From a bacterium (lineage in GTDB: Bacteria > SAR324 > NAC60-12), in contig OZ242383.1 in assembly GCA_965209155.1 (NCBI GenBank), positions 544,001 through 608,000 of the forward strand: DNA of 64,000 bases. Direction: 5' to 3'. This document shows, one piece after another, positions 16,655-56,839 of the stretch. The number at the start of each line of letters is the position of its first letter. Within the stretch, counting starts at the first letter, position 1. The position numbers and the translations under genes are program-made. The notes under the pieces were generated by a model. That model made no database searches. It was not told the origin of the DNA and was given only the letters and a program-made list of their open reading frames with translations.

Positions 16655-17533
16655 TTATTTTGAAGAGCGGGGATCGGAATCTTTCTCTTGGAGGAGAGCA
16701 CGCAGCCGTTCGACTTCCGCAAGCGCTTTTTCTTCTCTTGCCAAGGCAATTTTTTCTCTTGCCAAGGCGTTTTCTTTCAGTTGTCGCTCTTTTTCTTTCA
16801 GTTGTCGCTCTTTTTCTTTTTGCTGACGCTCTTGTTGGAAGCTTTTCAGGAGAAACGGTTGGTAGAGAGGATCCTCGATCAATGTTTCAAAGGCCACCTG
16901 TTTTTCTAAATCCTCCAGACGAAAGGCGAAACGATCCAAAACCCGGGAATGAATCACCTCAGGCTCTTTCTGCTTCATCCTCTCATAAACCCCTTGCTCA
17001 TTGAGGAAATAGAAGGCGGTGTGCTTGCGCAAACGGTCTAATATATAATATTCCGCCACCCCTGCTTTGGCGTATTCTTCTTTTTTGTGGACCGTATCCC
17101 GTTCTACCTCTGCGGGAGTCGAGTCGGATAAAAACTCAATACAGAGATCACAAACTCCCCTAAAAGAACGGTCCAGGGGTTTGGCCTCGACAGGATTGGA
17201 GTGGAGAATCACGGCCAGATCCGGTTTGCGAATACTCACCTTTTGCTTTCCCACCGCCAAACGAAAGCCCATTTCCAATACCATCATCCGTCCGATGGGA
17301 AAGACGGTCAAATACTCTTTTAATAAGTGGAAGAACCATTCATAGAGGGAGATGCTTAAAAAATCGGGCATAGGCTTTTCCTCCAAGAGTCCATTGTTCC
17401 ATTCATATGAACCATCCGGGTGTTCATAATACGTCTTCCAATACTCGGCTTCACTCGCCCTGAGCGGCTCCTTGGCAGAAGGAGGCAACCGTGTTGGAGA
17501 AGAGTGATTTTTGACGGATTCTAAAGAAGTCAT
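16655..17533 (-). CDS. Uma2-family (DUF820) endonuclease-fold protein with coiled-coil tail, copy 1
   Basis: RKPDLAV, IEFLS, KKEEYAKAGVAEYYILD; heptad-repeat tail; start uncertain. Confidence 0.85.
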   Translation of the reverse strand: MTSLESVKNHSSPTRLPPSAKEPLRASEAEYWKTYYEHPDGSYEWNNGLLEEKPMPDFLSISLYEWFFHLLKEYLTVFPIGRMMVLEMGFRLAVGKQKVSIRKPDLAVILHSNPVEAKPLDRSFRGVCDLCIEFLSDSTPAEVERDTVHKKEEYAKAGVAEYYILDRLRKHTAFYFLNEQGVYERMKQKEPEVIHSRVLDRFAFRLEDLEKQVAFETLIEDPLYQPFLLKSFQQERQQKEKERQLKEKERQLKENALAREKIALAREEKALAEVERLRALLQEKDSDPRSSK

Positions 17534-17854
17534 GATGCCCTCGATGAGAAGGAGTGGTGAAATTTGTCGTCTTTTCAAAAACATAACACATTGTGTGGAG
17601 GACAGCAATTTCTATGTTGATCGACTTTAAATAAATCGGACCCATTTTCACAATTATGTTATGTGATTGCTGTCCATTTTCAGCAGCGGTGACGTTGCTG
17701 GATTCTCTTTGATAAATAATTCTGTTGACTATTGATTACTATTTTATTACTGTTCCTTTTCAACACAGGTAACAATGCCCGATGAATCATGCGAAATCGA
17801 TGCGTCAAGCAGCATCATTGATTTCTATTTGATATCTAAAATGGCAGGAGGACG

Positions 17855-20800
17855 ATGAAAGGCAAAATCAGCAAGCATTCCGTCGAAAATCTGTCGTGCG
17901 AGAGAAAAGACCGCTTCCTGTGGGACACGGAGTTGCCGATGTTCGGCTGTAAAATAACCCCCAAGGGCAGACGGGTTTATCTCCTGCAATATCGCATCAA
18001 GGGACGCCTGAGGCGCTATACCATTGGCACGCATGGGATTTTGACCGCCAAAGAAGCCCGCCACATTGCCAGGAACCTGCTGCATGAGGTGGTCCTGGGT
18101 CGTGATCCGGCGGATACGAAGAATAAAAAAGGAGATCAAAACGATAAATTGTCTCCTGGACCTCCAAAAACGGTTGTGAACAACACGAAGTTGGTTTCCA
18201 GTGGGGAAAATGCAGAGATTCCGGGTTATTCACTGGAGGAGGTCATTTTTGAAAGTGGGCGGACCTGGCTTTGGCGCGGCAAGCGGCAAAGCGATGGGCT
18301 TTGGGTTCTGATCAAGGGAGCGGCTTCCTCTGAGCAGAGCGCGCAGGAGCTGGCGGAAATACGGCATGAGCATGAGATCACCCAGGCTCTTAAGATCGAT
18401 GGGGTCCTCAGGTCAGAGGAAGTGGTGCAATATGAAAACGGATCAGTCTTGATCCTGGAAAACACGGAAGGGCTTCCTTTAAGAAAGCTGATGGATGCCG
18501 CCCGGCTCGACCTGCTGGACTCGCTTAAGGTAGCGCTTTCACTGATCGGTATTCTGAAAGAAGTGCACCAGCAGGGCCTCCTGCATAAAATGATCAACCC
18601 ATTAAATATTTTTGTCGATCCGGGATCGGGAAACATCAAACTGAGCGGCTTCGGCCTGGCCACTCGGCTGCCCCGGGAAAATTTGACGACGTTGAGTCCC
18701 CAGCTTAGCGGGGAAACCCTGCCCTATATCTCCCCCGAGCAGACCGGGCGGATGAACCGGGTGCTCGATTATCGCAGTGATTTTTATTCTCTGGGCGCTA
18801 CCCTTTATGAACTTTTTACAGGGAGAGTACCTTTTGGGTCCCGGGAGACCATGGAAATCATCCACGCTCACATTGCCCGGCAGCCTGTACCCCTGGACCA
18901 GATGGCGCCGCAGGTGCCCAAACCCCTTTCTAATATGGTGATGAAACTGATGGCCAAGCGTGCCGAGGCGCGCTACCAGAGCCACTCGGGCCTTTCAGCT
19001 GATCTCCTGGCATGTCTGGATCAGCTCGAAAACCAGGGGAGCCTGTCCGACTTTCCCCTGGGCCGCCAGGACGTTCCCAAAGAACTGCAGATCGCCCCGG
19101 GGCTTTATGGCCGGGAGGATGAAATTACTGATCTGGAAGCCGCCCTGGAGCGAGTCAGCCAGGGAGCGACCGAGATGGTGCTGATCTCGGGAAGCGCCGG
19201 TGTCGGCAAAACCGCCCTGGTCGGTGAAATTCACCGGTCTATTGCCCAAAAAAACGGTTATCTCATCTCCGGCAAGTTTGACCAGCTCCGGCATAATATC
19301 CCTTACAGCGCTTTGATCCAGGCGCTGCGGGGACTGATCCGGGAGGTATCAGTCGAAGAGAAATCCGGAATGGAGCGTTGGAAAAGCAGGATACGGGCAG
19401 CGCTGGGCCCCAACGGACAACTGATGGCCCGGGTGATCCCGGAACTGGAACAGGTGATCGGCCCGCAACCCCCGCTGCCGGAAATGGGAGCGCTGGAGTC
19501 CCAGAACCGCTTCACTGCCGTTTTACTGGATTTCATCTCTGTTTTCTGTGAAAAAACCCATCCCCTGGTTATTTTTCTGGACGACTTGCAGTGGGTGGAC
19601 GCCGATACCCTCAAGCTGGTGGAACGCATCGCTCAGCATCCCGAGAGGAAACCTCTGCTTTTCCTGGGAGCCTATCGCGAAAACGAGGTGGAGGCCGATC
19701 ATCCGTTGTCGATCAGTTGTGAGGTGATCAAAAAATCTGGCCAGCCGCTGCAAACGATCCTCTTAAAACCTCTGAACTCAGAGAACATCTTACAACTGCT
19801 CGTCCATACCTGCCACTGCCGTCCTGAGGAGGCCAAACAGCTGGCCGAGGTCCTGGTGCGCAAAACCGGCGGCAATCCCTTCTTTGTGAGCCAGTTCTTG
19901 ACCGTACTCTCCGAGAAGGAGCTGATCCGCTACTCCCCTGAGGAAAAACGATGGACCTGGGAGCTGGCTGCCATCGAATTCCTGGCGGTGACCGAGAATG
20001 TGGTGGATTTGCTGGTTGACCGGCTCCACCGGTTTTCCTTTGAAACCAGGCGACTCTTGAGCCTGGCGGCCTGCATCGGCAATATTTTTGATCTGGAATC
20101 GTTGGAACTGATCAGCGGAGCCGGAAGCGGGGAGCTCTATGAGAACCTGTTGCCGGCCCTGGAAACCGGGTTGATCCTCGGTTTTTCCCGGGCTCCGCAG
20201 CTGGATAATCCTCCCGCCGGAGCGAGCATGGAAGGCGGCAGCTACAGCTTCCTGCATGACCGGGTGCAGCAGGCTGCCTATGCCCTCATTGCCGAAAAGA
20301 AGAGAAAGCCGGTCCATCTTCAAATCGGTCAGACCCTGCTCAAGCAATACGTTCCCGGGAAAAGTGACGCTCTGCTTTTTGACATCGTCCACCATCTCAA
20401 CCTGGCCCGGAGGGTGAAGGATAAATGGAAAGACCGATTGAATCTGGCGGAACTCAACTTGGAAGCCGGTCGTCAGGCCAGAGCGGCTTCGGCTTTTGAA
20501 CAGGCCCTGGAATACTTTACCCTGGGCCTGGAGCTTTCAGGAGCCGCCGCCTGGAAACGGCAATACCCCCTGACCTTATCCCTGCATGAGGAAGCCACGG
20601 AGATGTCATGGCTCTGCGGCCGCTTCGAGTTGATGGAGAAGCTGGCGGGTGCCGTAAAAGACAACGCCCGAGAGGACCCGGACCTGGCCACTGTTTATCA
20701 ATGCCGGATCAAGAACTACACCACCCAGGGTGAATTAAAGAAGGCCCTGAAAACGGGCGAAGAAATTCTGGAGAAATTGGGGTGTAATCTGAATCGTCTG

Positions 20801-23800
20801 TCTCTCGACCAGTGGCAGCAGACCCTCGTTCAAATCAAATCCGGCCTGGCCGGTAAAAGCGTCGAAGACGTGATGCGCTTTGAGCCGCTCACCCAACCTG
20901 ATGCCGAGGTCCTGGTCCCTATCCTCTATGAACTCCATTTGGCCTATGGCCAGGCTGGGGTTACTTTGGATGACGGTCTTTGGCAGCCCATCGCTTCAAA
21001 ACGTATCTCTTTTCTGCTCAATCATTTTCATCCGAAACATTCACCCGAATCCTATGGTTTCCTTGGAAGTATATATTGCTTGTATATGCAGGATTTTGAA
21101 TTTGGTTATGAACTCGGTCGTCTGGGCATACAGCTCATGGAAGCGATTGATCTGAAGGAAATAAACTGTAGAGTTTCCAAGGGTTTCAACGGCTATGTCC
21201 GATTCTACGGGGAGCCGCTATCGGCGTCATTGGAGCCCTTGCTGGAAGCTCATAAGATGGGAATCGAGACGGGAGATTTCTTCAATGCCGGTCGTGCAGC
21301 CGTCGTAAGATGTCAGATTGCCTTTATGTGCGGGAAGGAGCTGAACTGGCTGAAAGGGGAATTGTCAACGTTGAAACTTGCTCTCAAGAAGATCGATTAT
21401 ATTATCGGGTCTCCCCAGCTCGAAATGCTGACGAAGGCGATCATGATTCTAATGGAGGAACCTGCGAGCCTGTCGACCGCCATCATGGATCAATACCATA
21501 GGGTGACGGGTGCAGAGTACCGATATGGTGACCAGAGCAGTTTTAATTACCATAAGCTGGTGCTGCAAACCCTGTTCGAAGAATACGAAGCAGCCCGTGA
21601 GACGGTTTTTGAATTGATCAGCCTGATGAAAACCTATAAGGATCCCCTTATTGATCCCCTGGCCAACTGCTACCAATCCCTCGCTCTCCTGGCGGTCTGC
21701 GGCCAGGTGCCTGACGGGGAAAAAGAGGAGATCCTCACCCAGGTTCATGACAATCAGGATATGTTGGAAAAATTGGCGCGCTGCGCACCGTCTAATTATT
21801 TGCATAAGTATCATCTGGTGGAAGCCGAACGGATGAGGGTTTTGGAGGGTCAAAGCGACGCGATCCTATCTCATTATGACCAGTCCATCGCTTTGGCCAG
21901 AGAGAGCGAATTTATCCACGAGGAAGCCCTGGCCAATGAACTGGCAGCCAGGTACTTGCTCAACCAGGGGCAAAATGACGCCGCCAGGTCTTACCTGCGC
22001 TCAGCAATGGAGAAGTACGAAGCCTGGGGGGCAAAACGGAAGGTCGCGCATCTGAAGTCTCGATATCCCGGGTTGATTGCCGATGATCACACTGAAACGG
22101 TGGCGTCTCCTTCGGCCAACCTGGATCTGGTGACGATGCTCAAAGCCTCGGAGGCCATCTCCAGTACCATCGAGTTGGAACCGCTGCTGGAGATCCTGCT
22201 CCGCATTCTCATGGAAAATGCCGGGGCCCAGACAGCAACCCTGATTCTGGAAACCGAAGGTCAGTCTCTCATTGCTGCCCGCGGGAGCACCGAGCAGGTC
22301 GAATGTTTTCTACCGCTTTCCCTGCCTGTGGAAAAGGCTGGATCCCTCTCCCTCTCGGTCATCTCTTGGGTGAAACAAACCCGGGAGCATCTGGTTTTAG
22401 ACAACGCCGCCCGGGAGGAACGGTTTGTCTATGATGATAATATTCAGAGGGAACGTCCTAAATCAATCCTGTGCGCACCGATCACTCACAAGTCATCTTT
22501 GAGCGGCATAATTTACCTGGAAAATAACCTGGTTGAGGGAGCCTTCACCTCCCGGCGATTCGAGGTGATCAAACACCTCACCTCCCAGATCGCCATTTCT
22601 CTGGAAAATGCCAGGCTTCACGAAAACCTCAAACGAACCGAAGCGGAATACCGGGGAATATTTGAAAATGCCACCGAAGGCATCTACCGGACGAGCCAGG
22701 ACGGCCGCTTTCTGAGCGCCAATCCAGCGATGGCCCGGTTATTCGGGTACTCTTCCCCGGATGAGCTGATGGCATCCATCACCGACGTCGGGCACCAGCT
22801 TTATGTGAATCCGGAGCGGCGTCATCAGTTCCTGGATCTCATCCGGCAACGACGCCCCGTTTCGGATTTTGAGGTAGAATTTTTCCGTAAAGACGGCAGC
22901 ACCTTCTGGGCTTCCCTGCACGCCCGCCCAGTCTATGATGAGACCGATGCCTTGCGCTTCATCGAAGGGATTATTTCCGACATAACGGAGCAGAAAAACC
23001 GGATGGAAGCCCTGAATGAAGAAAATGTCCGCCTGAAGGCCAACATTAAGGAACGTTATCGCTTCGGAAAGATCATCGGTAAAAGCCCCGTGATGCAGGA
23101 GATTTATGAATTGATCTTAAAGGCGGCGGCTAGCGATGCGGGTGTCATTGTATACGGTGAATCAGGCACCGGTAAAGAACTGGTGGCCGAAGCCATCCAT
23201 AAGATGAGTGATAGAAAAGAAAAACCCTTTGTGACCATCAACCTCGGTGCCGTTCCGGAAACCCTCTTGGAAAGCGAGTTTTTCGGCTACAAAAAAGGGG
23301 CCTTTACCGGAGCCAATGCGGATAAGCGCGGCCTGCTCCAACAGGCAGACAAAGGCACGCTTTTCCTGGATGAATTGGGTGAAATCGGCCCCAATCTGCA
23401 AGCTAAACTGCTGCGTGCTATTGAGGGCGGAGGGTTCACGCCAGTAGGCGGACTTGAAGCGGAAACCTCCGATTTTCGCGTCGTTGCCGCCACCAATAAA
23501 GATTTAAAACAACAGGTGAAAAAGGGATTGATGCGGGAGGATTTCCTCTACCGCATCCACATTATCCCTATTCACTTGCCGCCTCTCCGGGAACGTAAAG
23601 AGGATATCCCCCTTTTGATCGAGCATTTTATGCAAAACCACCCTTCCTCAAAGAACCTGCCCAAAATCACCCTCCGTGTCATGGAAGCTCTGACCTCCTA
23701 TGATTGGCCGGGAAACGTCAGGGAACTGATCAACACCCTGTATCGCTATGTCACTCTGGGAGAGGTTGATTTTCTGGGGGAACGGATAAATTCCAAAATC

Positions 23801-24004
23801 AGCGAAACTTCAAATTTCGGAGATACCATCAACCCCAGGAAAATGGCGCTGGATCAGGCCATCGCGGATAGTGAAAAAGCGGCGATTCTCAATGCTCTGA
23901 AAAATTTTGAGGGCCACAAGGTAAAAACCGCTGCCGCCCTGGGAATCTCCCGGGCCACCCTCTTCAACAAAATGAAAAAGTACGGAATTCGGACCAGCAC
24001 CTGA
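17855..24004 (+). CDS. 2049-aa multidomain sigma54-dependent activator: integrase arm-type DNA-binding domain, pseudokinase, STAND/AAA ATPase, helical repeats, GAF, PAS, sigma54 AAA+, Fis HTH
   Basis: LWDTELPMFG...YRIKG...TIGTHG..TAKEAR...GRDP; YISPEQTGRMN; GSAGVGKT / FLDDLQW; FLHDRVQQAAY; IYLENN; IFENATEGIY; GESGTGKE, GAFTGA, FLDE, WPGNVREL; ALGISRATLFNKM. Confidence 0.9.
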   Translation: MKGKISKHSVENLSCERKDRFLWDTELPMFGCKITPKGRRVYLLQYRIKGRLRRYTIGTHGILTAKEARHIARNLLHEVVLGRDPADTKNKKGDQNDKLSPGPPKTVVNNTKLVSSGENAEIPGYSLEEVIFESGRTWLWRGKRQSDGLWVLIKGAASSEQSAQELAEIRHEHEITQALKIDGVLRSEEVVQYENGSVLILENTEGLPLRKLMDAARLDLLDSLKVALSLIGILKEVHQQGLLHKMINPLNIFVDPGSGNIKLSGFGLATRLPRENLTTLSPQLSGETLPYISPEQTGRMNRVLDYRSDFYSLGATLYELFTGRVPFGSRETMEIIHAHIARQPVPLDQMAPQVPKPLSNMVMKLMAKRAEARYQSHSGLSADLLACLDQLENQGSLSDFPLGRQDVPKELQIAPGLYGREDEITDLEAALERVSQGATEMVLISGSAGVGKTALVGEIHRSIAQKNGYLISGKFDQLRHNIPYSALIQALRGLIREVSVEEKSGMERWKSRIRAALGPNGQLMARVIPELEQVIGPQPPLPEMGALESQNRFTAVLLDFISVFCEKTHPLVIFLDDLQWVDADTLKLVERIAQHPERKPLLFLGAYRENEVEADHPLSISCEVIKKSGQPLQTILLKPLNSENILQLLVHTCHCRPEEAKQLAEVLVRKTGGNPFFVSQFLTVLSEKELIRYSPEEKRWTWELAAIEFLAVTENVVDLLVDRLHRFSFETRRLLSLAACIGNIFDLESLELISGAGSGELYENLLPALETGLILGFSRAPQLDNPPAGASMEGGSYSFLHDRVQQAAYALIAEKKRKPVHLQIGQTLLKQYVPGKSDALLFDIVHHLNLARRVKDKWKDRLNLAELNLEAGRQARAASAFEQALEYFTLGLELSGAAAWKRQYPLTLSLHEEATEMSWLCGRFELMEKLAGAVKDNAREDPDLATVYQCRIKNYTTQGELKKALKTGEEILEKLGCNLNRLSLDQWQQTLVQIKSGLAGKSVEDVMRFEPLTQPDAEVLVPILYELHLAYGQAGVTLDDGLWQPIASKRISFLLNHFHPKHSPESYGFLGSIYCLYMQDFEFGYELGRLGIQLMEAIDLKEINCRVSKGFNGYVRFYGEPLSASLEPLLEAHKMGIETGDFFNAGRAAVVRCQIAFMCGKELNWLKGELSTLKLALKKIDYIIGSPQLEMLTKAIMILMEEPASLSTAIMDQYHRVTGAEYRYGDQSSFNYHKLVLQTLFEEYEAARETVFELISLMKTYKDPLIDPLANCYQSLALLAVCGQVPDGEKEEILTQVHDNQDMLEKLARCAPSNYLHKYHLVEAERMRVLEGQSDAILSHYDQSIALARESEFIHEEALANELAARYLLNQGQNDAARSYLRSAMEKYEAWGAKRKVAHLKSRYPGLIADDHTETVASPSANLDLVTMLKASEAISSTIELEPLLEILLRILMENAGAQTATLILETEGQSLIAARGSTEQVECFLPLSLPVEKAGSLSLSVISWVKQTREHLVLDNAAREERFVYDDNIQRERPKSILCAPITHKSSLSGIIYLENNLVEGAFTSRRFEVIKHLTSQIAISLENARLHENLKRTEAEYRGIFENATEGIYRTSQDGRFLSANPAMARLFGYSSPDELMASITDVGHQLYVNPERRHQFLDLIRQRRPVSDFEVEFFRKDGSTFWASLHARPVYDETDALRFIEGIISDITEQKNRMEALNEENVRLKANIKERYRFGKIIGKSPVMQEIYELILKAAASDAGVIVYGESGTGKELVAEAIHKMSDRKEKPFVTINLGAVPETLLESEFFGYKKGAFTGANADKRGLLQQADKGTLFLDELGEIGPNLQAKLLRAIEGGGFTPVGGLEAETSDFRVVAATNKDLKQQVKKGLMREDFLYRIHIIPIHLPPLRERKEDIPLLIEHFMQNHPSSKNLPKITLRVMEALTSYDWPGNVRELINTLYRYVTLGEVDFLGERINSKISETSNFGDTINPRKMALDQAIADSEKAAILNALKNFEGHKVKTAAALGISRATLFNKMKKYGIRTST

Positions 24005-24011
24005 ATGGAAC

Positions 24012-24277
24012 TCATCCAGAAACGAAAAGTTCTTTCATCGCGCTGGTTGGAGGAGGAGAGGTTTTCATTGTTTGTAGCAGCTTTTCTCCAGACGCTTTAG
24101 AGACCACGATTTTCGGAGAAACGATCAAATCTTCCGGAATTTCCTGAGGGCTTGTAAATGATGAAGAAGGGCACTCTCTATAAAAAACCCTTTCTTGACT
24201 CCGTAGGCATTGACGTAGGCTTCTGCCCTTTTTTTGGTTTCTTCTGAAATATGGGCTGATATTTGGGGATTGGACAT
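24012..24277 (-). pseudogene. Frameshifted RHH-type antitoxin-like gene
   Basis: RBS AGGAG. Adding two single bases restores MSNPQISAHISEE.KKRAEAYVNAYGVKKGFFIESALLHHLQALR.IPEDLIVSPKIVV...PTSAMKELFVSG*. Confidence 0.55.
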
Positions 24278-24370
24278 AGCATCTCCTGTTGTGAGGTTTC
24301 TACAAAAATGTAGAGTTATTTATATTTTTTGTCAAGCGCAATGTGTCCATAAATAATAGAGTTAAAAAGT

Positions 24371-24478
24371 GTCAAAAATTTTAGACTTAAGTATAAAAAT
24401 TTAGATTTTAGTCTATAAACCTTGAATATCAATGATTTAACCATGATTTCCGATCGAGTTAAGTCAAAATTTTTAGAC
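24371..24478. promoter_or_regulatory. Candidate enhancer (UAS) repeats and IHF site of module 1
   Basis: Near-palindromes GTCAAAAATTTTAGAC (24371-24386) and GTCAAAATTTTTAGAC (24463-24478), degenerate copy at 24391-24406; TATCAATGATTTA (24427-24439) fits the IHF consensus WATCAANNNNTTR. Confidence 0.6.
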
Positions 24479-24555
24479 ACTTGCTTCGCATACCCAACCC
24501 TCCCCTTTTTAAAATTAGTTAATAATTACAGTAAGTTAACTGAATAGCCTCAAAT

Positions 24556-24572
24556 TTGGCACACAGCTTGAA
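24556..24572 (+). promoter_or_regulatory. Sigma54 -24/-12-like promoter, module 1 (GA variant at -12)
   Basis: TTGGCACACAGCTTGAA (GG-N10-GA), 80 bp from the UAS-like palindrome and upstream of a co-oriented operon. Confidence 0.55.
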
Positions 24573-48782: not shown

Positions 48783-49092
48783 TAATACTATTACCACAAG
48801 TTAATCCCTTCCGCTCTCAAAAGACCGCAAAGCGGTCAAAGCCGCGCGTCCCAACGCGAAGCATGGGGACGATTTAAGGGGAGAAAAGGGTTATCGGTCA
48901 GACACTCGAAGTAAATCATCATTAAAGGAGGAAATGCCTATGGAATAAAACCCGTTTTGAAACAGCTGATGGGCGCGTGAGAGCGTCATTTTGTCATTTA
49001 TTTTTTATTTTTTTAAGGAGAATCTTATGAAATCGAAAATCGCTATTCTGTTAATGCCATTTTTTCATTCATTATATTTTAAGGAGAATCTT

Positions 49093-50862
49093 ATGAAATC
49101 GAAAATCACTAAGTTTACTCTGCTGGCCCTCATCGTGGCTGCAGTCTTCATCTTCACTTCCGCTATCGCCCAAGAGAGGAAGATGCTCAAAGACCCGTCC
49201 ACCGGCAAGATGGTGACAGCACCTGAATACGGTGGAACAATTGTTTTCCCACCAACTGGCAATGGTCCTGAGCAACCGCACGCTGACGTTGTGATCAAAG
49301 GAAATTATATTATAAGTGAGGCCATTGCTCCCGTACTAGAGAAGATGGGTATGACAGACTGGTCAACGCCCAGGGACAAAGAGTGTTTTTGCGCGTGGTC
49401 TGCTCCGTTGGAAACTAGTAAACCACACCTGGCGGAGAGCTACGAGACGCCAGACCCCCTGACCTACATCTTCAAAATCCGCAAGGGCATTCACTGGCAC
49501 GATAAACCTCCGATGAACGGGCGGGAGCTGACTGCTGATGACATTGCATATAACTATCACCGGGTAACGGGTCTGGGGAGCGGCTTCACCGAGCCAAACA
49601 AATTTGTGCACAATATCTCCGGCTTGGGAATCGAATCGATAACGGCGACCGACAGGTATACGGTTGTCTTCAAGATGAAAAAAGTAAACTGGATGGCCCT
49701 TTTACAAATTTACTATAATAGCACCGAGGGTTCCTGGATATATCCCCCTGAAGTCATCAAGGAACACGGGGACGCTCAGGACTGGAAGAACCTCGTCGGC
49801 ACCGGACCCTATGAGTGGACCGACTGGGTAAAGGGCACCTCGATGACCTTCAAAAAGAATCCTAACTACTGGGCCTTTGACGAAAAGTTCCCGGAGTACC
49901 GGCTGCCCTACGCGGATGAGCTCAAGAGGGTACAAATAACGGATCCAGCTACGCAATTGGCGGCATTTCGGGCGGGCCAGATTGCTATTTTGCGACATCT
50001 TGGCGTAGACGACGGAGAGTCACTCAGGCGGACTAATCCTGATGCCACGACGTTTACGTCAATGTACCAGACCACGAAAGCTTCCTTTGCCATGAATGTG
50101 CGCGAGGCACCTTTTGACGACATCCGCGTGCGTCAGGCTATGAATTTGGCGTTAGACCACGAGACAATGAACAAAGCCCTTTATGGGGGACTTGGAGACG
50201 CGACGCCTTACGGGATTGTTGGGCCGAGTTTCCCCGGGGAATTCATCCCATTCGAGGAGTGGCCGGAAGCGGTCAAGGCAAACCATCGCTATGACCCGGA
50301 AAGGGCGAAACGGCTTCTGGCGGAAGCCGGCTACCCCAACGGCTTCAAGACCACTCTCAACTACACCACGGAATGGTATTCAGTGGATCTGGACTATGCG
50401 CAAGCAGCTAAGGACTACTGGAAGCAGATTGGCGTTGACGTCGAAATTAAGCTGACTGACGGAGCGACCGCTGCCGCTAACATACAAAATGCGACTTATA
50501 AAGGTATGACCTTTGCCGGCCGGGCTAACCAAATCGTGCCGCTTTTTGAAATAAGGGAGTTTGGTCACGCGGGTCAGGGAGCAACGAACCATTCCTTGCA
50601 CCAGGACATTGTCATGGATACCCTGATTGAAGCCGCCGAAAATGCCCCCACCTTGGAGAAAAGTATGGCGCTGACGGCTGAGGCCGATATGTACTATATA
50701 AAGCAGCAATGGACGACGTGGGCTCCGCGACCGCCTGAGTATGTCTTCGCTCAGCCGTGGCTGAAAGGTTGGAATGGTGAGTATTTTGTGGGAAGCGGAT
50801 ATGCGACTCTCTACTCCCGTCTCTGGGTTGACCAAAAGCTGAAGAAAGAAATGGGGCACTAG
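49093..50862 (+). CDS. Peptide/nickel-type (family 5) ABC substrate-binding protein
   Basis: Signal peptide; PEYGG, LAESYE, GTGPY, PFDDIRVRQA, LLAEAGYPNGF; RBS/start duplicated at 49011-49045. Confidence 0.9.
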   Translation: MKSKITKFTLLALIVAAVFIFTSAIAQERKMLKDPSTGKMVTAPEYGGTIVFPPTGNGPEQPHADVVIKGNYIISEAIAPVLEKMGMTDWSTPRDKECFCAWSAPLETSKPHLAESYETPDPLTYIFKIRKGIHWHDKPPMNGRELTADDIAYNYHRVTGLGSGFTEPNKFVHNISGLGIESITATDRYTVVFKMKKVNWMALLQIYYNSTEGSWIYPPEVIKEHGDAQDWKNLVGTGPYEWTDWVKGTSMTFKKNPNYWAFDEKFPEYRLPYADELKRVQITDPATQLAAFRAGQIAILRHLGVDDGESLRRTNPDATTFTSMYQTTKASFAMNVREAPFDDIRVRQAMNLALDHETMNKALYGGLGDATPYGIVGPSFPGEFIPFEEWPEAVKANHRYDPERAKRLLAEAGYPNGFKTTLNYTTEWYSVDLDYAQAAKDYWKQIGVDVEIKLTDGATAAANIQNATYKGMTFAGRANQIVPLFEIREFGHAGQGATNHSLHQDIVMDTLIEAAENAPTLEKSMALTAEADMYYIKQQWTTWAPRPPEYVFAQPWLKGWNGEYFVGSGYATLYSRLWVDQKLKKEMGH

Positions 50863-50887
50863 GGATTCATTCCTTTGGATAGCAAAT

Positions 50888-50984
50888 TGTTCCCATGCTT
50901 TGCGTGGGAACAGGGGATTAGACGCTTCGCGTCTGACCGCAAAGCGGTCACATCTTGACATTCCCACGTGAAACGTGGGAACGA
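50888..50984. repeat. REP-like element (TTCCCA...GTGGGAAC family) bracketed by a 23-bp direct repeat
   Basis: Half copy at 48820-48872; ACTAGGGATTCATTCCTT(T/A)GGAT at 50858-50880 and 51029-51051. Confidence 0.7.
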
Positions 50985-51062
50985 TTTCAGGAATGTTGGA
51001 CATGGGTCAACTATTTTCTAACAGCAATACTAGGGATTCATTCCTTAGGATGATGTTCATAG

Positions 51063-51102
51063 AGAAGCGGGTGTTGGGGATTAAAGCCTCGGCACCCGCT
51101 TC
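51063..51102 (+). terminator. Intercistronic stem-loop (terminator or mRNA stabiliser)
   Basis: AGAAGCGGGTG...CACCCGCTTCT between the binding-protein gene and the permease. Confidence 0.55.
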
Positions 51103-51124
51103 TAATTCTGAATGAGTAAGTGAG

Positions 51125-52081
51125 ATGAGAACCTACATCATCAGAAGATTGCTGTTAATCATTCCCACCTTGTTTGTTGTGTCGACCATAGTCTTTCTTT
51201 CCGTTCGCTTGATCCCCGGAGATGTCATCACCATGATGAGCGCACAGGCGGGAAGCGGCTTTGGCGTTGGAGTGAACCGTGAAGCCCTTGAGCGTGAGTT
51301 CGGGCTGGATGTGCCGTGGTATGTCCAATATGTTCGTTGGATGGCCGGGTTGTTTCGAGGGGACCTTGGGGAATCATTCAGGGGGCAATCTCCCGTTACC
51401 GATGAGATACTCCCTCGGTTGCCAGTGACCCTTGAGCTAGGGTTCTTTGCCATGCTTATCTCAGTAATCACAGCGCTGCCGGTAGGCATCTACTCGGCGA
51501 TTCGCCAGGATACCCTCGGTGATTACATGGGACGCGGCATAGCCATTGTCTTCATCTCAATCCCATTATTCTGGACAGCGACCATGGTCATGATTTATCC
51601 CGCGCTCTGGTGGGGGTGGGCCCCCCCGTTGGAACTCATCCCTTTCGAGAGAGACCCGCTGGGCCATCTGGGGATGTTTATCATTCCGGCCATCGTGATG
51701 GGGTTGTTCCTTTCGGGAACCACTATTCGAATGACGCGCACCATGATGCTGGAAGTCCTGCGGCAAGATTATATCCGGACGGCCTGGTCAAAAGGTCTCA
51801 CGGAGAGGGCGGTCGTTATCGGGCATGCCATGAAGAACTCCCTGATCCCGGTGGTCACCGCAATAGGGACTCTTATGCCTTACGTGATTGGAGGCGCGGT
51901 CATCGTTGAGCAGATATTCGCGCTACCCGGCATCGGCCAATTCATGCTGGAAGCCATTACCTATCGAGACTATCCCGTGGTCTCTGCCATTAACCTGATT
52001 ACGGCCACCTTAGTGGTGCTGATCAATCTCCTGGTCGACCTGACCTACGCCTACCTGGACCCCAGGATTCGATATCGCTAA
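51125..52081 (+). CDS. ABC permease (DppB/OppB-like)
   Basis: YIIRRLL, GDLGES, QDYIRTAWSKGL, DPRIRY. Confidence 0.92.
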   Translation: MRTYIIRRLLLIIPTLFVVSTIVFLSVRLIPGDVITMMSAQAGSGFGVGVNREALEREFGLDVPWYVQYVRWMAGLFRGDLGESFRGQSPVTDEILPRLPVTLELGFFAMLISVITALPVGIYSAIRQDTLGDYMGRGIAIVFISIPLFWTATMVMIYPALWWGWAPPLELIPFERDPLGHLGMFIIPAIVMGLFLSGTTIRMTRTMMLEVLRQDYIRTAWSKGLTERAVVIGHAMKNSLIPVVTAIGTLMPYVIGGAVIVEQIFALPGIGQFMLEAITYRDYPVVSAINLITATLVVLINLLVDLTYAYLDPRIRYR

Positions 52082-52094
52082 GGAAACAGAAAAA

Positions 52095-52181
52095 CCCTCC
52101 CCACCGCTATGCGGTCCCCCCCTCCCGAGAGGCCGTACGCGGAAGCGGGAATTCCCCTCTCGGGAGGGGTTAGGGGTGGGT
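52095..52181. repeat. REP-like palindrome (CCCCTCCCGAGAGG / CCCCTCTCGGGAGGGG)
   Basis: Inverted arms; bracketed by CTAAG(G)AAACAGAAAAA at 52078 and 52208. Confidence 0.65.
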
Positions 52182-52225
52182 CAACTAGAGAAAATTGACA
52201 GATACTACTAAGAAACAGAAAAATC

Positions 52226-53167
52226 ATGACTGAAGTAACAAATAGTGCGACTCCCTTGGCAGAGCAAAAGAGACGCTCCCGCTTGATAGACTTCTTCCGA
52301 AGGCTGGTCAGGGAAAAGCCACTGGGTACATTTGGCGGCATCATCGTGCTGCTGATGCTGCTCGTCGGCATCTTCGCCGACGTCCTGGCTCCCTACGGGA
52401 TGAACGAGACTCACCTGATAGACAGGCTGAGTCCAGCGTCAGGGAAATACCTGCTGGGGACCGACCAATTGGGGCGAGACATCCTCAGCCGAGTCATCTA
52501 CGGGGCCCGCGTTTCGGTTATCATTGGCCTGGCAGGAACCAGTCTCTGTGTGGCGGTGGCGATGTTAATCGGCATTACCGGATTCTTCGGCGGCAAGCTC
52601 GACCTGATCCTCCAGAGGTTGGTTGACGGCTGGATGGCCTTCCCGCCGCTGCTCATTCTCGTCACGGTGATGTCGCTGGCTGGACAAGGCATGCTTCAGA
52701 TCATCCTGGTCCTGGGGATCAGCTTTGGCATCAGTAATTCGAAGATAGCGCGCAGTGCCGTCATCGCCATCAAAGAGAGCATGTACATTCAGGCGGCAGA
52801 AGCGATTGGGGTGGGCACCGGCAGAACCATCCTCCGCCATGTGTTTCCCAACATCATGGCACCCCTGATCGTCATATTCACAGTGAATGTAGGCGGTATC
52901 ATCGTGACCGAAGCCGCCCTGAGCTTCCTCGGCTTCGGTCTGCCTCCGGATGCGGCCAGCTGGGGAGGGATGCTCAGTTGGGAAGGACGCCGATACATGG
53001 AGATGGCCCCGCGGATAGCCCTCTGGCCCGGGGTTACCCTGAGCGTCGTGGTCTGGGGCACCAACATGTTCGGCGATGCCTTAAGAGACCTGCTCGATCC
53101 CAGCCTGCGGGGCGGTGTGGGTCGCTTCGAAAGGCTCAAAAAGAAAAAGGTTAAAAAGAAAAACTGA
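52226..53167 (+). CDS. ABC permease (DppC/OppC-like)
   Basis: LGTDQLGRDILSR, EAALSFLG, GDALRDLLDP. Confidence 0.92.
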   Translation: MTEVTNSATPLAEQKRRSRLIDFFRRLVREKPLGTFGGIIVLLMLLVGIFADVLAPYGMNETHLIDRLSPASGKYLLGTDQLGRDILSRVIYGARVSVIIGLAGTSLCVAVAMLIGITGFFGGKLDLILQRLVDGWMAFPPLLILVTVMSLAGQGMLQIILVLGISFGISNSKIARSAVIAIKESMYIQAAEAIGVGTGRTILRHVFPNIMAPLIVIFTVNVGGIIVTEAALSFLGFGLPPDAASWGGMLSWEGRRYMEMAPRIALWPGVTLSVVVWGTNMFGDALRDLLDPSLRGGVGRFERLKKKKVKKKN

Positions 53168-53265
53168 TAAACGCATTAGAGGAGTTTCTATGACAGGGAC
53201 ACTGGAACAGCGCCCCTTCGGGCGTACAAATGAGAGCTTTAATTATTTTAATTTGCAGGAGGAAT

Positions 53266-53577
53266 ATGGCTGTACTTTATATCAGTAAAATAAAAATTAA
53301 AAAAGATAAGAAGGATGAATTTGTGGATTTATTGAAGTCTCCAAAAGGATTTGCTCTCACAAAATCAAAACCTGGGCTTAATTCTTTGGAAAGTGGAGTT
53401 TCCACAGATGATTCTGGTCAAAGCACTGTCCACATATGGTGTAAATGGGAGAAAAGGGAAGATTTTGAAAATTACACGAAAGATCCTAACCGAGATCCTG
53501 AAAGTGAGTACAATAAGAAATTGGCAGGTATGACAGACGGGCCTCCAAAGATGGTTTGGCTTGAAATTATTGAGTAA
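53266..53577 (+). CDS. Small dimeric alpha/beta-barrel (ABM-like) protein
   Basis: K.K..KKDEF...W.KREDFENY pattern; RBS AGGAGG; visibly AT-rich. Confidence 0.6.
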   Translation: MAVLYISKIKIKKDKKDEFVDLLKSPKGFALTKSKPGLNSLESGVSTDDSGQSTVHIWCKWEKREDFENYTKDPNRDPESEYNKKLAGMTDGPPKMVWLEIIE

Positions 53578-53620
53578 GCGGTAAAGAGTATGAGTATTCA
53601 GAGTTTATAAAGGAGGAAAA

Positions 53621-54556
53621 ATGAACCTACCCACGTGGACCCGCGACGCCGGGACAATGAAACGAGATATCGACGAGCATGGATATTGTCTCGTCAAGGA
53701 AGCGCTGACACCGGAACAGCTTGCCGAAGCACGCGAGCGTCTCAGCGAGCAGGCCGAGGCCGAGCGCAAGGCCGGCGTCGCCTTCTTCTATGACGGCCGG
53801 ATCCCTGGTGACCTGGGAACATTTCCGGAACCCAAGACTGGCAACAGCCAACTTGTGGGTTTTCTCGCAAACAAGGGCCGCATCTTTCGCGAGATGGCTG
53901 CGCGGCCGGACATTCTGGACATTGTGCGCCATGTGCTCGGCGAGGAAATCCGTATCCAAAATCTCATAGCGCACATCACTCGCAGTGGCCGCCAGGCGCA
54001 GACGCTGCACCAGGACCAATGGTTCGTCCCATCGGCCGGCCGCTATGACGAGCCGATGCGGGCCGGATCGATCACACGCGCGAATCCTGGCCAGCCCGAG
54101 ACACCGGGAGCGACCCTGATGCCGTGCATCGTGTGCAACGTCTTTTGGATGCTGGACGACTTCACCAGCGAAAACGGTGCAACCTGGATCGTGCCCGGCA
54201 GCCACAAGCTCGGACGCCGACCGAACAAGGACGACATTAAGAACCAGATGCAGGTAACAGGCCCGGCCGGCAACTGCTTCATCTTCGACGGCCGGCTCAT
54301 TCATGGAGCCGGAGCCTACCTCTCTCAGGATCCAACTGGCGAGCGGACGGGCCTCACCTTCGCTTACCAACCGCCCATGTTCAGGCCCTTCGAGAACTAT
54401 CCGATGGCGTTGCTTCCTGAGGTGTATGAGGAAGCCTCCCAAGAGCTTCTCGATCTCCTGGGCTTCAAGGTCTGGTTCGGCATTGGCCACCGGGGCGACT
54501 TTCTCGCGGAGCGCATCTCGCCCGACACACCGATCATCGGGGAACTGAAGCCTTGA
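53621..54556 (+). CDS. Phytanoyl-CoA dioxygenase (PhyH)-family protein
   Basis: LHQDQ, WMLDDFTSENGAT.IVPGSH, DGRLIHG. Confidence 0.9.
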   Translation: MNLPTWTRDAGTMKRDIDEHGYCLVKEALTPEQLAEARERLSEQAEAERKAGVAFFYDGRIPGDLGTFPEPKTGNSQLVGFLANKGRIFREMAARPDILDIVRHVLGEEIRIQNLIAHITRSGRQAQTLHQDQWFVPSAGRYDEPMRAGSITRANPGQPETPGATLMPCIVCNVFWMLDDFTSENGATWIVPGSHKLGRRPNKDDIKNQMQVTGPAGNCFIFDGRLIHGAGAYLSQDPTGERTGLTFAYQPPMFRPFENYPMALLPEVYEEASQELLDLLGFKVWFGIGHRGDFLAERISPDTPIIGELKP

Positions 54557-54593
54557 TCAAAACGATTTATCTCTTAAAATTAGAGGAGTTTCT

Positions 54594-55526
54594 ATGACAG
54601 AGACACTGGAACAGCGCCCCTTCGGGCGTACAGGGGAGATGGTCAGCCTCATCGGGCTGGGTGGCGCCGCGCTCCATAAGCACAGCTATCAGCACGGGCT
54701 GGCCACCGTCAAACATGCGCTGGATCTGGGGATCCGCTATTTTGATACCTCTCCTTGGTACGGCATCGCGGCTGATGAGAAGTGGATCAGCGAGGGTGAA
54801 TCGCAGCACATTATGGGTGAGGGGCTCGAGGGGACAAGCAAGCCGCATCTACTGGCCACGAAGATTAATGCCTGGCGGACCTACAATCATTCGGTAGAAG
54901 ATTGTCTCGCGCAGGTACGAGACAACCTCCGTGTGCTGCGTCGTGACCGGGTCGACGTGCTCTTAGGCCACGAAATGGGACATAGACGATTCTGGAAGCC
55001 GGACGCGAAAGAAGAGGAGCAGCTGGAGATCGAGGAGTCGCTCGACTACGAGAATGCGCCGGTGATGCAAGCCCTTCGTGAGGCCAAGGTGCAGGGGTTC
55101 TGCCGTTACCTGGGTCTCAGTGGCGGCCCGTCAGAGCTCCTGGCTCATGTGATGCAGCGGGTAAAACTCGACATGTGCCTGTCCGCCGGTGGGTATTCGC
55201 TGAGGGATCGTACTTCTCCGCGTGTGATGCTCCCGGTCATTCGTGAACAGGGCATGGCCTATGTGATTGGCGGCATTTTTTCTGTACTGGGCAAAGGTGT
55301 CTTCAACGGAGCACTCTTCAAGGATGCGCATCTCCTCGAGTTGGCCCGGACCACGGGTCTTTCGATTGCGGCGATGAGTGTGCGCTTTTTGATGGCCAAT
55401 CGGGAGATTACAACTATCCTGGTGGGCGCGTCCACACCCGAAGAGATTGAGGAGAGCGTCGTGGCCGCCCAGGCCGGCCCGCTCCCGCCTGATATTCAGC
55501 AAACCCTGGAAGCGCTCGCTCTTTAA
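54594..55526 (+). CDS. Aldo/keto reductase
   Basis: RPFGRTG...IGLG, GIRYFDTSPWYG, LATK, ILVGASTPEEIEE. Confidence 0.88.
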   Translation: MTETLEQRPFGRTGEMVSLIGLGGAALHKHSYQHGLATVKHALDLGIRYFDTSPWYGIAADEKWISEGESQHIMGEGLEGTSKPHLLATKINAWRTYNHSVEDCLAQVRDNLRVLRRDRVDVLLGHEMGHRRFWKPDAKEEEQLEIEESLDYENAPVMQALREAKVQGFCRYLGLSGGPSELLAHVMQRVKLDMCLSAGGYSLRDRTSPRVMLPVIREQGMAYVIGGIFSVLGKGVFNGALFKDAHLLELARTTGLSIAAMSVRFLMANREITTILVGASTPEEIEESVVAAQAGPLPPDIQQTLEALAL

Positions 55527-55674
55527 AAAGAATGAAACGAGATATCGACGAGCATGGATATTGTCTCGTCAAGGAAGCGCTGACACCGGAACAGCTTGCC
55601 GAAGCACGCGAGCGTCTCAGCGAGAAGGCCGAGGCTTCGTAATTGGGAGTATCGCTTGTGGGAGGCATAGAATT

Positions 55675-56523
55675 TTAGCGGGGATCAGCATCTTTCTCTT
55701 GGAGGAGAGCACGTAACCGTTCAACTTCCGCAAGCGCTTTTTCTTCTCTTGCCAAGGCAATTTTTTCTCTTGCCAAGGCGTTTTCTTTCAGTTTTCGCTC
55801 TTTTTCTTTTTGCTGACGCTCTTGTTGGAAGCTTTTCAGGAGAAATGGTTGGTAGAGAGGATCCTCGATCAATGTTTCAAAGGCCACCTGTTTTTCTAAA
55901 TCCTCCAGACGAAAGGCGAAACGATCCAAAACCCGGGAATGAATCACTCCGGGCTCTTGATGCTTCATCCTCTCATAAACCCCTTGCTCATTGAGGAAAT
56001 AGAAGGCGGTGTGGTTGTGCAAACGGTCTAAAATATAATATTCCGCCACCCCTGCTTTGGCGTATTCTTCTTTTTTGTGTACCGTATCCCGTTCTACCTC
56101 TGCGGGAGTCGAGTCGGATAAAAACTCAATACAGAGGTCACACACCCCATGAAACGAACGATCCAACGGTTTGGCCTCGACTGGATTGGAGTGGAGAATC
56201 ACGGCCAGATCCGGTTTGCGAATGCTCACTTCGTTGTCTCCCAACTCCAAACGAAAACCCATTTCCAATATCATCATCCGTCCGATGGGAAAGACGGTCA
56301 AATACTCTTTTAATAAGTGGAAGAACCATTCATAGAGGGAGATGCTTAAAAAATCTGGCATAGGCTTTTCCTCCAAGAGTCCATTGTTCCATTCATATGA
56401 ACCATCCGGGTGTTCATAATACGTCTTCCAATACTCAGCTTCACTCACCCTGTGCGGCTCCTTGGCAGAAGGAGGCAACCGTGTTGGAGAAGAGTGATTT
56501 TTGACGGATTCTAAAGTAGTCAT
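55675..56523 (-). CDS. Uma2-family protein, copy 2
   Basis: Near-identical direct-orientation paralog of 16655-17533, including about 90 bp upstream. Confidence 0.85.
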   Translation of the reverse strand: MTTLESVKNHSSPTRLPPSAKEPHRVSEAEYWKTYYEHPDGSYEWNNGLLEEKPMPDFLSISLYEWFFHLLKEYLTVFPIGRMMILEMGFRLELGDNEVSIRKPDLAVILHSNPVEAKPLDRSFHGVCDLCIEFLSDSTPAEVERDTVHKKEEYAKAGVAEYYILDRLHNHTAFYFLNEQGVYERMKHQEPGVIHSRVLDRFAFRLEDLEKQVAFETLIEDPLYQPFLLKSFQQERQQKEKERKLKENALAREKIALAREEKALAEVERLRALLQEKDADPR

Positions 56524-56839
56524 GATGCAATCGATGGGAAGGAGAGGTGAAATTTGTCGTCTTTTCGAAAGAATAACACATTGTGTGGAGGACAGCAATT
56601 TCTATGTTGATCGACTTGTAACTATTCAGGTATCTTCAGAGAACCCATCGATTTAAGCACAGGTTTTGCGTGGCATTAGAGTCCGGAAAGGACTTTATGC
56701 TCTCGAAAGTTCAAAAATATATTGATTCCCTTTCATCGACTCCCCACCTCGAGGCTTTTCAAGAAGCCAGTCAACTCTTTGAAAAAGAACGAAAACCATG
56801 GAAGCAAGAGCGCTTAGAACGTAACATGAGTTCTTAACT

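Follow-up and report, generated by a model that had tools for sequence, protein, structure and literature searches.

The window analysed here is a stretch of 64,000 nucleotides (positions 544,001 to 608,000 of the forward strand of contig OZ242383.1, GenBank assembly GCA_965209155.1) from a bacterium of the SAR324 lineage NAC60-12. It contains a 40-kb island with two look-alike, co-oriented units at 17855-36841 and 39954-55526 (open reading frames [ORFs] and Pfam), each composed of a gene for a giant sigma54 activator, a -24/-12 promoter and an array of transporter and enzyme genes, hereafter called cargo. This duplicated layout had been described in an initial annotation of the DNA and is confirmed here in part. 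The two modules are probably members of a 25-member family of recombining regulator-operon units, and one of the two is damaged. The anatomy of the modules, the co-variation between the helix-turn-helix (HTH) of the activators and their sites, a recombination signal, reassortment between species and the absence of the island from a congeneric genome were all observed.

With the sensor core (amino acids 119-1595) as tblastn query, the source genome of the window (G000; a metagenome-assembled genome [MAG] in a single 4.26-Mb contig, 93.6% complete and with 2.2% contamination) yielded 25 near-full-length activator copies and four fragments. The copies are labelled c1-c25, with c3 and c4 being those of modules 1 and 2, respectively. 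Twenty-one of them are single, intact ORFs; frameshifts are found in c4 and c6, an insertion in c14 and several stop codons in c18. The Walker A (GESGTGKE), GAFTGA loop and Walker B (LFLDEL) motifs of the sigma54 module are retained in 25/25 copies, and both window activators match Pfam Sigma54_activat (E 2e-67 and 7e-64). The hallmarks of enhancer-binding proteins are present as well, namely an HTH_8 domain, one rpoN gene in the genome, a promoter behind each of the 25 copies and co-variation of the HTH with palindromic sites. The pattern TGG[CT]A[CT]N5TTG[CA] occurs on the same strand 166-4911 bp past the activator stop codon in 24 copies; the promoter of the 25th reads TGGTCCCTTAGTTGCA. A stricter form of the pattern (TGGCA[CT]N5TTG[CA]) has 76 matches in the genome versus about 32 expected from base composition, and 24 of the 76 are promoters of the family. 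Every activator is followed, on the same strand, by ABC uptake genes (Pfam), with the binding-protein gene being the first in 24 modules and the fourth in c2; that of c18 is broken. Two distant sigma54 activators and one fragment are encoded elsewhere in the genome, and one family makes up nearly all of its sigma54 activators (25 of about 27).

Activators and promoters are closely matched. In the protein alignment, which comprises the 21 intact copies and the long frame of c4 (22 in total), the last 74 residues fall into four DNA-binding classes (61-95% identity within and 15-35% between classes), and the DNA-binding class agrees with the promoter class in 22/22 copies. Within each class, 225-330 bp upstream of the promoter are conserved and include palindromes; in classes I and III these regions also contain a putative IHF site. 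Co-variation extends to individual HTH residues. In class I, the HTH sequence ISRATLF or ISRAALY is paired with GTGTC...AGAC in seven copies (c1, c3, c5, c9, c14, c20, c24) and ISRTTLF with GTGTTCAAAATATTAAAC in five (c6, c7, c8, c11, c21), which amounts to 12/12, eleven by pattern and c20 by reading of the alignment. In class III, VDRKTLYRKI(N/I) is paired with GGCATATCTGCC-type sites in c12, c15, c16, c18 and c22, three of which have variant site copies, and V(D/N)PKTLYRKIK with GGCATTT(C/A)TGCC in c19 and c25 (7/7). Each activator therefore appears to be tied to its own promoter, and this co-variation is the best evidence for local action.

A strong signal of recombination was detected in the sensor cores. 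Protein identity is 81-91% in every pair, and the DNA is 89.2% identical on average with a standard deviation of 0.9 (378 pairs, formed by 24 copies of G000, c14 being excluded, and four of the congeneric genome G001). Near-identical tracts are embedded in these cores: c13 and c15 share one of about 1.1 kb at 100% identity, c9 and c21 one of about 0.9 kb at 98.5-100%, and c10 and c20 one of about 0.5 kb at 99%. Across 433 biallelic sites the mean r2 between variable sites decreases from 0.26 at distances below 10 bp to 0.058 at 50-100 bp and then to a floor of about 0.045 (1/n = 0.042), and all four gametes are found in 82-89% of the site pairs that are more than 50 bp apart. Cores of uniformly about 89% identity in which linkage is lost within some 100 bp indicate pervasive gene conversion.

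The remainder of the activator is likewise variable. An Arm domain forms the N-terminus of 12 copies, a Zn-ribbon that of seven copies plus c4, and another type that of c5 and c24; a MerR-type N-terminus is recorded in precomputed Pfam data for one activator protein of this genome, with no assignment to a copy. A PAS domain is present in seven copies and the AAA+ domain exists in two classes that are 62-67% identical. N-terminus, PAS, AAA+ and DNA-binding/promoter classes combine freely, none being nested in another. The platform had been thought to be constant and the cargo exchangeable; the platform turned out to be itself a mosaic of these elements. Binding proteins encoded behind near-identical activators belong to unrelated families or are 20-88% identical within a family.

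Comparison with G001, also a MAG (4% contamination), revealed that the modules are reassorted between species. G001 contains four full copies (in modules L002, L003, L004 and L005) and one partial copy. Their cores are 88-91.5% identical to every copy of G000 and are mosaics whose best match switches every few hundred bases. Modules of the two genomes are 89-97% identical on a backbone of 78-83% identity (over 15.8 kb, covering cysS-msbA, modF-matE, prfB and the TldD-to-L1 region; at the protein level, 88% for MsbA and 79% for ModF). Cargo identity amounts to 96.0% over 7.1 kb between L004 and c5, 92.9% over 7.1 kb between L003 and c21, and 95.7-96.9% between L002 and c9 and c8. The pairing of platform and cargo known from G000 is kept by only one of the four G001 modules (L004, corresponding to c5), the other three being paired differently. 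In L003, a class III DNA-binding domain and promoter are joined to the leader and cargo of c21, which has a class I platform in G000, and the crossover maps inside the shared TTGAAGCTAAAGAC beside the -12 element. L002 mixes c8 and c9, and L005 has the left flank of c22 with other cargo. The cargo genes of the window are scattered across at least six places in G001, where the desaturase of cargo 1 was not found. At the island locus itself, msbA and modF are separated by 48 bp in G001 versus 40.2 kb in G000, i.e., the 40-kb island is missing. The proposal that homologues in relatives would show the platform with varying cargo is thus borne out, both genome-wide in the 25 copies and in the re-paired modules of G001.

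Two explanations of the family have to be weighed against these data. Plain vertical expansion, in which whole modules were duplicated and then diverged without recombination or exchange between species, would account for the clusters c15-c16, c18-c19, c20-c22 and the window pair, and for related cargo in some neighbouring or similar modules. We regard it as very improbable in view of the decay of linkage within 100 bp and the failed four-gamete test, the tracts of 100% identity against a background of 89%, the domain classes that are not nested, the unrelated binding-protein families behind near-identical activators, and modules that are closer between species than the backbone is. The second explanation is an assembly artefact, i.e., mis-joining or mis-polishing of repeated 6-kb genes that created false mosaics and a false island. 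The frameshift of activator 2 is located in a homopolymer run and the genome is a MAG with the completeness and contamination given above, both of which suit that explanation; the recovery of the genome in one contig, the same family with the same mosaic in the separate assembly G001, and the origin of the best 120 relatives listed from many other contigs do not. A difference of 11% between copies would presumably also be too great for misplacement of reads. An artefact seems hardly credible.

The cargo most likely stems from the genome itself. The range of its enzymes is limited (PhyH and TauD dioxygenases, SDR, aldo/keto reductase [AKR], BNR/ThuA/Ldh_2, luciferase-like monooxygenases, CoA ligases and transferases, and amidases), and most cargo genes of the window have paralogs in other modules of the same genome at 83-97% DNA identity, which does not agree with the foreign origin suggested initially. 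The transporter genes of module 1 are 86-97% identical to those of c7. In module 2, the ABM-PhyH cassette has counterparts in c13, c17 and c23 at 93-96% identity, PhyH alone has one in c19 at 95%, and the AKR gene has one in c23 at about 93-95%; the SDR gene of cargo 1 likewise has a copy in c23, at 93%. In the ABM-PhyH, PhyH and AKR cassettes, homology sets in a few bases ahead of the start codon and reaches as far as the stop codon, and no shared spacer, hairpin or attC-like site was seen at these junctions. Cassette exchange has left behind a 105-bp remnant of a PhyH 5' end, which follows the AKR gene (55531-55635). Judged by these identities, the cargo appears to be a shuffled pool of the genome's own paralogous genes.

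These data bear on the integron-like outcome that had been proposed, in which a site-specific system would load foreign promoterless cassettes behind a fixed activator-promoter unit. Such a system would fit arrays that are co-oriented behind a single promoter, cargo that differs among modules, toxin-antitoxin (TA) genes inside modules, which are likewise found in chromosomal integrons, and the integrase-type arm DNA-binding domain fused to 12 activators. The annotation had itself noted that no integrase is visible, and none was found in a Pfam scan of the 27 island ORFs. Extension of the scan to 246 ORFs located behind the other 23 copies likewise revealed no integrase catalytic domain, the only integrase-type piece being the Arm domain fused to the activators. 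Further arguments against site-specific capture are cassette homology that ends at start and stop codons with no common spacer or hairpin, the same-genome paralogy of the cargo, the recombination of the platform itself, and the one mapped crossover between platform and cargo, which lies inside sequence common to both promoter types. We therefore judge capture of this kind to be highly improbable. What stands of the original proposal is a conserved regulator-promoter unit with varying cargo; as to mechanism, the evidence points to homologous exchange among paralogous modules and between related genomes rather than to integron-like capture.

The organization of module 1 and the left edge of the island is as follows.

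16655-17608, minus strand: left-edge Uma2-family gene of the island, divergent from activator 1 (Pfam Uma2, E 2.6e-15)
17855-24004, plus strand: activator 1, copy c3, 2049 amino acids (Pfam)
24125-24277, minus strand: convergent 50-amino-acid ORF (ORF listing; no Pfam match)
24369-24386, 24427-24439 and 24463-24479, plus strand: class Ia upstream activator site GTGTCAAAAATTTTAGAC, IHF-like site TATCAATGATTTA and activator site GTCAAAATTTTTAGACA, respectively (sequence)
24557-24571, plus strand: -24/-12 sigma54 promoter TGGCACACAGCTTGA (pattern match; rpoN in the genome)
24665-24975, no strand given: dispersed-repeat ('MITE') copy in the leader (self-BLAST)
25073-36841, plus strand: cargo 1, ten co-oriented genes (Pfam)

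Activator 1 is composed, in this order, of an Arm-type DNA-binding domain, a dead kinase, a STAND-type (AAA_16) ATPase, a presumably helical middle region, GAF, PAS, the sigma54 AAA+ domain and HTH_8. HKM replaces HRD and GFG replaces DFG in its kinase; GESGTGKE, GAFTGA and LFLDEL are retained. Of the palindromes that had been noted, those upstream of its promoter are the near-palindromes GTGTCAAAAATTTTAGAC and GTCAAAATTTTTAGACA; these class Ia sites are conserved across the alignment of the 12 class I modules and co-vary with the HTH residue. The intervening TATCAATGATTTA is a putative IHF site. The leader is 500 nucleotides long and includes the dispersed repeat. Cargo 1 encodes SBP_bac_1, two permeases, a MalK-type ATPase, a fatty-acid desaturase, an epimerase, an SDR, a TauD dioxygenase, a luciferase-like monooxygenase and SnoaL.

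Metatranscriptome contigs, drawn from four libraries and as many studies, lie on genes of cargo 1 at 95-99% identity. One of these contigs joins 24664 to 24976 and thus stems from a close relative that lacks the repeat copy in the leader. Almost no contigs of the four RNA runs fall on the activator gene (17.5-24.1 kb), where the uncovered part proves nothing. At the start of the binding-protein ORF (25073-25160) there is a tandem duplication with MKSIVFGEIIMKKI twice ahead of the signal peptide; one RNA-library contig jumps from 25064 to 25117 and omits 52 bases at this place, which means that the repeat number differs among relatives. Two adjoining partial copies of the dispersed repeat are located between the ATPase and desaturase genes within cargo 1 (30233-30616). 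Outside of the island, a perfect 79-bp tandem duplication lies between an FGGY kinase gene and a GST gene (9280-9435).

Module 2, the flank pieces preceding it and the right edge of the island comprise the following features.

36925-38202, minus strand: duplicated flank pieces, a modF fragment (36926-37787) and an Uma2 3' fragment (38011-38202) (Pfam, self-BLAST)
38638-39702, minus strand: IS110-family transposase gene upstream of activator 2 (Pfam)
39954-45931, plus strand: activator 2, copy c4, with N-terminal Zn_ribbon_IS1595, no PAS and a frame broken near 41368 (ORFs, Pfam)
45915-46752, minus strand: convergent PIN toxin gene (45915-46412; Pfam PIN, E 2.5e-9) and putative antitoxin ORF (46414-46752; 112 amino acids, no Pfam match)
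47090-47282, plus strand: distal half of the class II regulatory block; the palindrome GGGGTCATTTGACCCC occupies 47247-47262 (alignment, sequence)
47283-48689, minus strand: IS1595-family element in the class II block, transposase gene at 47585-48517 (Pfam DDE_Tnp_IS1595, E 7.6e-40)
48767-48781, plus strand: -24/-12 sigma54 promoter TGGCATCCTCCTTGC (pattern match)
48991-55635, plus strand: cargo 2, ending in the 105-bp fragment of a PhyH 5' end (Pfam, self-BLAST)
55675-56598, minus strand: Uma2-family gene at the right edge of the island (Pfam, self-BLAST)

The two activators are close paralogs, as had been noticed (83-86% amino acid identity). The expectation of one activator of about 2000 residues per module holds for module 1; that of module 2 is split into frames of 543 and 1495 amino acids by a 1-nucleotide deletion within the CCCCGGGG run near 41368. 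Activator 2 also differs from activator 1 in the missing PAS domain and in having Zn_ribbon_IS1595 where activator 1 has the Arm domain. A recent origin of this N-terminus from the resident IS1595 element was considered and rejected, as the identity is only 28%. The element itself carries the features typical of its family: a transposase gene, perfect 23-bp terminal inverted repeats GGGAATTATATACAAAGTTAACC and an 8-bp target duplication TTTCAAAA. It lies between the palindrome GGGGTCATTTGACCCC and the promoter, which are now 1.5 kb apart. Module 2 is thus damaged twice, by the activator frameshift and by the IS1595-family insertion in the regulatory region.

Several other elements seen at first inspection were re-examined. 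Both modules have the -24/-12 sites that had been pointed out, and each array begins with a gene for a solute-binding protein, followed by permeases and oxidoreductases; cargo 2 encodes SBP_bac_5, two permeases, an ABM-like ORF, a PhyH dioxygenase and an AKR. That the arrays share no gene holds insofar as they have no homologous DNA apart from the repeat element, yet both contain BPD_transp_1 (Pfam) permeases. The supposed miniature inverted-repeat transposable element (MITE) turned out to be a genuine repeat that occurs at 116 loci of the genome, but it is not enriched in the gaps between activators and promoters: eight loci lie in gaps, about what intergenic DNA predicts, and it was therefore rejected as a component of the module. 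The convergent TA locus noted in module 2 corresponds to the PIN gene and the 112-amino-acid ORF upstream of it, a putative toxin-antitoxin pair; the 'remnant' assigned to module 1 is the 50-amino-acid ORF. The latter is possibly what is left of an antitoxin gene, a reading based solely on position, because 15 of the 25 modules have TA- or nuclease-type genes in the same gap. These small, selfish-type genes are mostly convergent with the activator. They encode PIN, ParE, TumE and YhgA-like nuclease proteins (two each) and one each of DUF3368, DUF5615, RelE with an HTH partner, HicB-like, GNAT, HNH and DSP phosphatase; for scale, the genome has 20 PIN and five ParE matches in total and the gaps represent 0.85% of it. 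One might guess that the gap genes stabilise modules against loss, or else that the gap is a neutral landing site.

The left Uma2 gene is 92.8% identical across 968 bp to the copy at 55677-56621, and at 8 of 14 loci a module is adjoined by Uma2 paralogs, which are invariably encoded on the opposite strand. The modF fragment at 36926-37787 is 98.8% identical to 56910-57771; together with the Uma2 fragment inside the island it is the mark of earlier rearrangements. The same IS110-family insertion sequence and Uma2 fragment as upstream of activator 2 are found upstream of c12. No tRNA was found at the island edges, no att-like repeats were seen at its ends on reading the edges against the G001 junction, and no Rfam family was detected in the window that would correspond to a known RNA, such as a riboswitch, in the long leaders.

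Additional observations concern the family elsewhere in the genome. The four activator-gene fragments (at about 1424100-1425400, 1721540, 3099178 and 3891549) are presumably relics of lost modules; one fragment lies downstream of the c9 cargo beside an IS66 piece. Like the window pair, other modules are clustered 14-24 kb apart (2472057/2489212, 2952609/2966698 and 3113321/3131247/3155050). In c19, a stand-alone gene for a 120-amino-acid response-regulator receiver is located between the sigma54 promoter and the binding-protein gene (L024:1555-1917), and genes for 23S rRNA intervening-sequence proteins occur near three modules (L006:13239-13586, L019:9565-9912 and L025:7897-8244).

In the sensor part of the activators, the fold of the kinase domain matches PknB by sequence (E 1.7e-21), yet all 21 intact copies have HKM(I/V)NP.N and GFG or GFD where active kinases show HRD..N and DFG. 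The catalytic aspartates of both motifs are lost, and we therefore classify the domain as a pseudokinase and not as a Hanks-type kinase. The STAND part (AAA_16, E 9e-45) has conserved Walker A (GVGKT) and Walker B (FLDDLQW) motifs; matches to TPR were sub-threshold only, and a sequence search with the middle region (amino acids 400-1450) found no relative of solved structure. The ratio of nonsynonymous to synonymous substitutions (dN/dS), computed on 23 copies, is 0.36 across the core; values of about 0.2-0.4 were obtained for kinase, AAA_16 and GAF, and values of 0.6-1.0 across amino acids 1019-1268. Activator identity at amino acids 821-1018 correlates with the identity of the binding proteins (Mantel r = 0.29, p = 0.0005). 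From there up to GAF it is less pronounced, and in the kinase and AAA_16 parts there is none. Copies c20 and c22 differ in N-terminus, PAS, AAA+ class and DNA-binding class; they are followed by transporters of one type, and their binding proteins are 88% and their variable patches 92% identical (background 77.8 ± 4.5). This likeness, a single pair, and the correlation fit a sensor that is matched to its substrate.

Relatives from other genera of the family shed light on the origin of this architecture. The same combination of activator and operon was sought at 17 large chassis ORFs of G008, G009 and G010 and not found. These ORFs end in SpoIIE (12), a cyclase (three), HATPase_c (one) or no recognised output (one). 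They lack both the extra N-terminal domain and a binding-protein operon downstream, and no -24/-12 motif was found just downstream on the same strand, with three isolated matches elsewhere in 2 of 16 loci. The kinase loop reads HKD or HRD in 16/16 readable relatives, and DFG is present in 13. From the retained kinase residues and the different outputs we conclude that a common chassis gained a sigma54 output in the lineage studied here, lost its kinase chemistry and multiplied. In each of these genera there are at least 14 copies of the kinase-STAND-GAF chassis (L031-L046) with SpoIIE phosphatase, cyclase or histidine-kinase outputs; the chassis thus expanded there, too, with other outputs.

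Taking the domain composition and the matched promoters together, we propose the following model. The giant one-component activator would bind, via its C-terminal HTH, to palindromes 0.1-4.9 kb downstream of its own stop codon, and its AAA+ domain would open the sigma54 holoenzyme at the adjacent -24/-12 promoter, so that the genes for an ABC importer and for a short oxidative pathway are switched on. The N-terminal sensor, consisting of the dead kinase, the STAND ATPase, the helical region, GAF and sometimes PAS, probably gates this step, and its signal is probably the imported compound or one of its products. In terms of evolution, the family is a recombining gene pool, in which short-tract gene conversion holds all sensor cores near 89% DNA identity. 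Larger exchanges bring the N-terminal domain, PAS, the AAA+ class and the unit of DNA-binding domain, activator sites and promoter into new combinations, and the cargo arrays are reshuffled from the pool of paralogous transporter and enzyme genes. Whole modules, according to this model, are part of the flexible genome and are shared between species.

A number of points weigh against this model, or at least against parts of it. Up to seven modules have nearly the same HTH and sites, so that cross-activation within a subclass is possible, and the shared specificity may weaken the notion of one activator for one operon. In the extreme, activators of the same class would act in trans on class-wide regulons, i.e., three to six co-regulated sets that pool many sensors. 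HTH and palindromes are near-identical within subclasses (seven modules in Ia, five in Ib, five in II, five in IIIa and two in IIIb) and the C-termini are up to 95% identical, in agreement with such regulons; the location of each activator next to its own operon and the weak sensor-cargo correlation favour local pairing, and nothing contradicts class-wide action directly. We rate this arrangement as somewhat doubtful; it is a variant of the best explanation and not its opposite. Dependence on sigma54 and action on the adjacent promoter are predicted from sequence, and the same applies to ligand sensing and to any role that gap genes or Uma2 might play. The sensor-cargo correlation declines with distance from the cargo, and linkage alone could explain much of it. 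The contigs from RNA libraries give neither strand nor transcription start and may derive from DNA. Regarding exchange between species, the flanks of the G001 module contigs do not match G000 and these contigs could belong to another organism. In the other genera, which were consulted for the polarity of the 40-kb indel, msbA and modF are on different contigs. Finally, the frameshifts of c4 and c6 may be assembly errors.

Beyond the model of a recombining regulator-operon family, it is tempting to speculate that the 25 activators are a repertoire of nutrient sensors driven by recombination. Conversion between paralogs and diversifying selection on amino acids of about 1019-1268, a presumably helical patch in which dN/dS reaches 1.0, would continually make new ligand specificities. 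With three to six matching combinations of DNA-binding domain and promoter, any sensor could be re-plugged onto any operon for uptake and catabolism, and whole modules would move between species as units that are flanked by Uma2 nuclease genes and stabilised by the TA genes of the gap. Such a repertoire would resemble the diversification of NLR or antigen-variation families. We consider this extension rather unlikely.

With respect to known systems, the architecture of the protein and the adjacency of activator and operon are of familiar kinds. Kinase-STAND(AAA_16)-TPR-GAF-sigma54 fusions occur in ESM Atlas clusters; their domains follow one another as here, from kinase to HTH_8, and they likely target a sigma54 promoter next to them. 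Unlike in those fusions, 25 recombining copies are present in one genome, the catalytic residues are lost, an extra N-terminal Arm, Zn-ribbon or MerR domain is attached and an ABC uptake operon is the target. In the titles and opening lines of abstracts that were searched, neither a kinase-STAND-sigma54 fusion nor gene conversion among sigma54 activators was mentioned. In one-component activators such as XylR and DmpR, and in the GAF-type activators NifA, NorR and FhlA, a sensor gates the AAA+ domain, and activator sites, IHF and a -24/-12 promoter are located beside the operon. The family described here shares the activator sites, an IHF-like site and the promoter next to the operon and, presumably, the gating of the AAA+ domain by a sensor. 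It differs in having a 1500-amino-acid pseudokinase-STAND-GAF chassis in place of V4R or a lone GAF domain, and in being a recombining family as opposed to single genes. MalT is a STAND transcription activator and PknK of Mycobacterium a kinase-STAND protein. Both have in common with our activators the P-loop NOD, whose Walker A and B motifs are conserved here, and probably a helical sensor arm; unlike in MalT and PknK, the output is a sigma54 AAA+ domain.

Chromosomal integrons (superintegrons) likewise combine a promoter-bearing platform with co-oriented variable arrays and interspersed TA genes. By contrast, no IntI, attI or attC was seen here, exchange occurs by homology, and the platform, which carries a regulator gene, varies as well. 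Multigene families that are kept similar by gene conversion and have upstream regions in common also show promoter-leader blocks that are more conserved than the genes behind them, and mosaic paralogs. In the present case a 6-kb regulator gene belongs to the shared unit, and the genes that follow are for nutrient uptake and not for surface variation. The novelty lies in a 25-fold family that recombines, in its dead kinase and borrowed DNA-binding domains at the N-terminus, in natural variants of specificity and in the reassortment by modules.

Activators of sigma54 are usually described as single, stable regulators. The family found here behaves as a recombining population, and how the specificities of regulator and promoter stay matched during shuffling becomes a testable question, for which nature provides ready-made swaps of specificity in the Ia/Ib and IIIa/IIIb variants. 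A second testable question is the rewiring of nutrient uptake in an uncultured marine bacterium. More generally, a pattern of platform plus cargo can arise through homology alone, without integron machinery.

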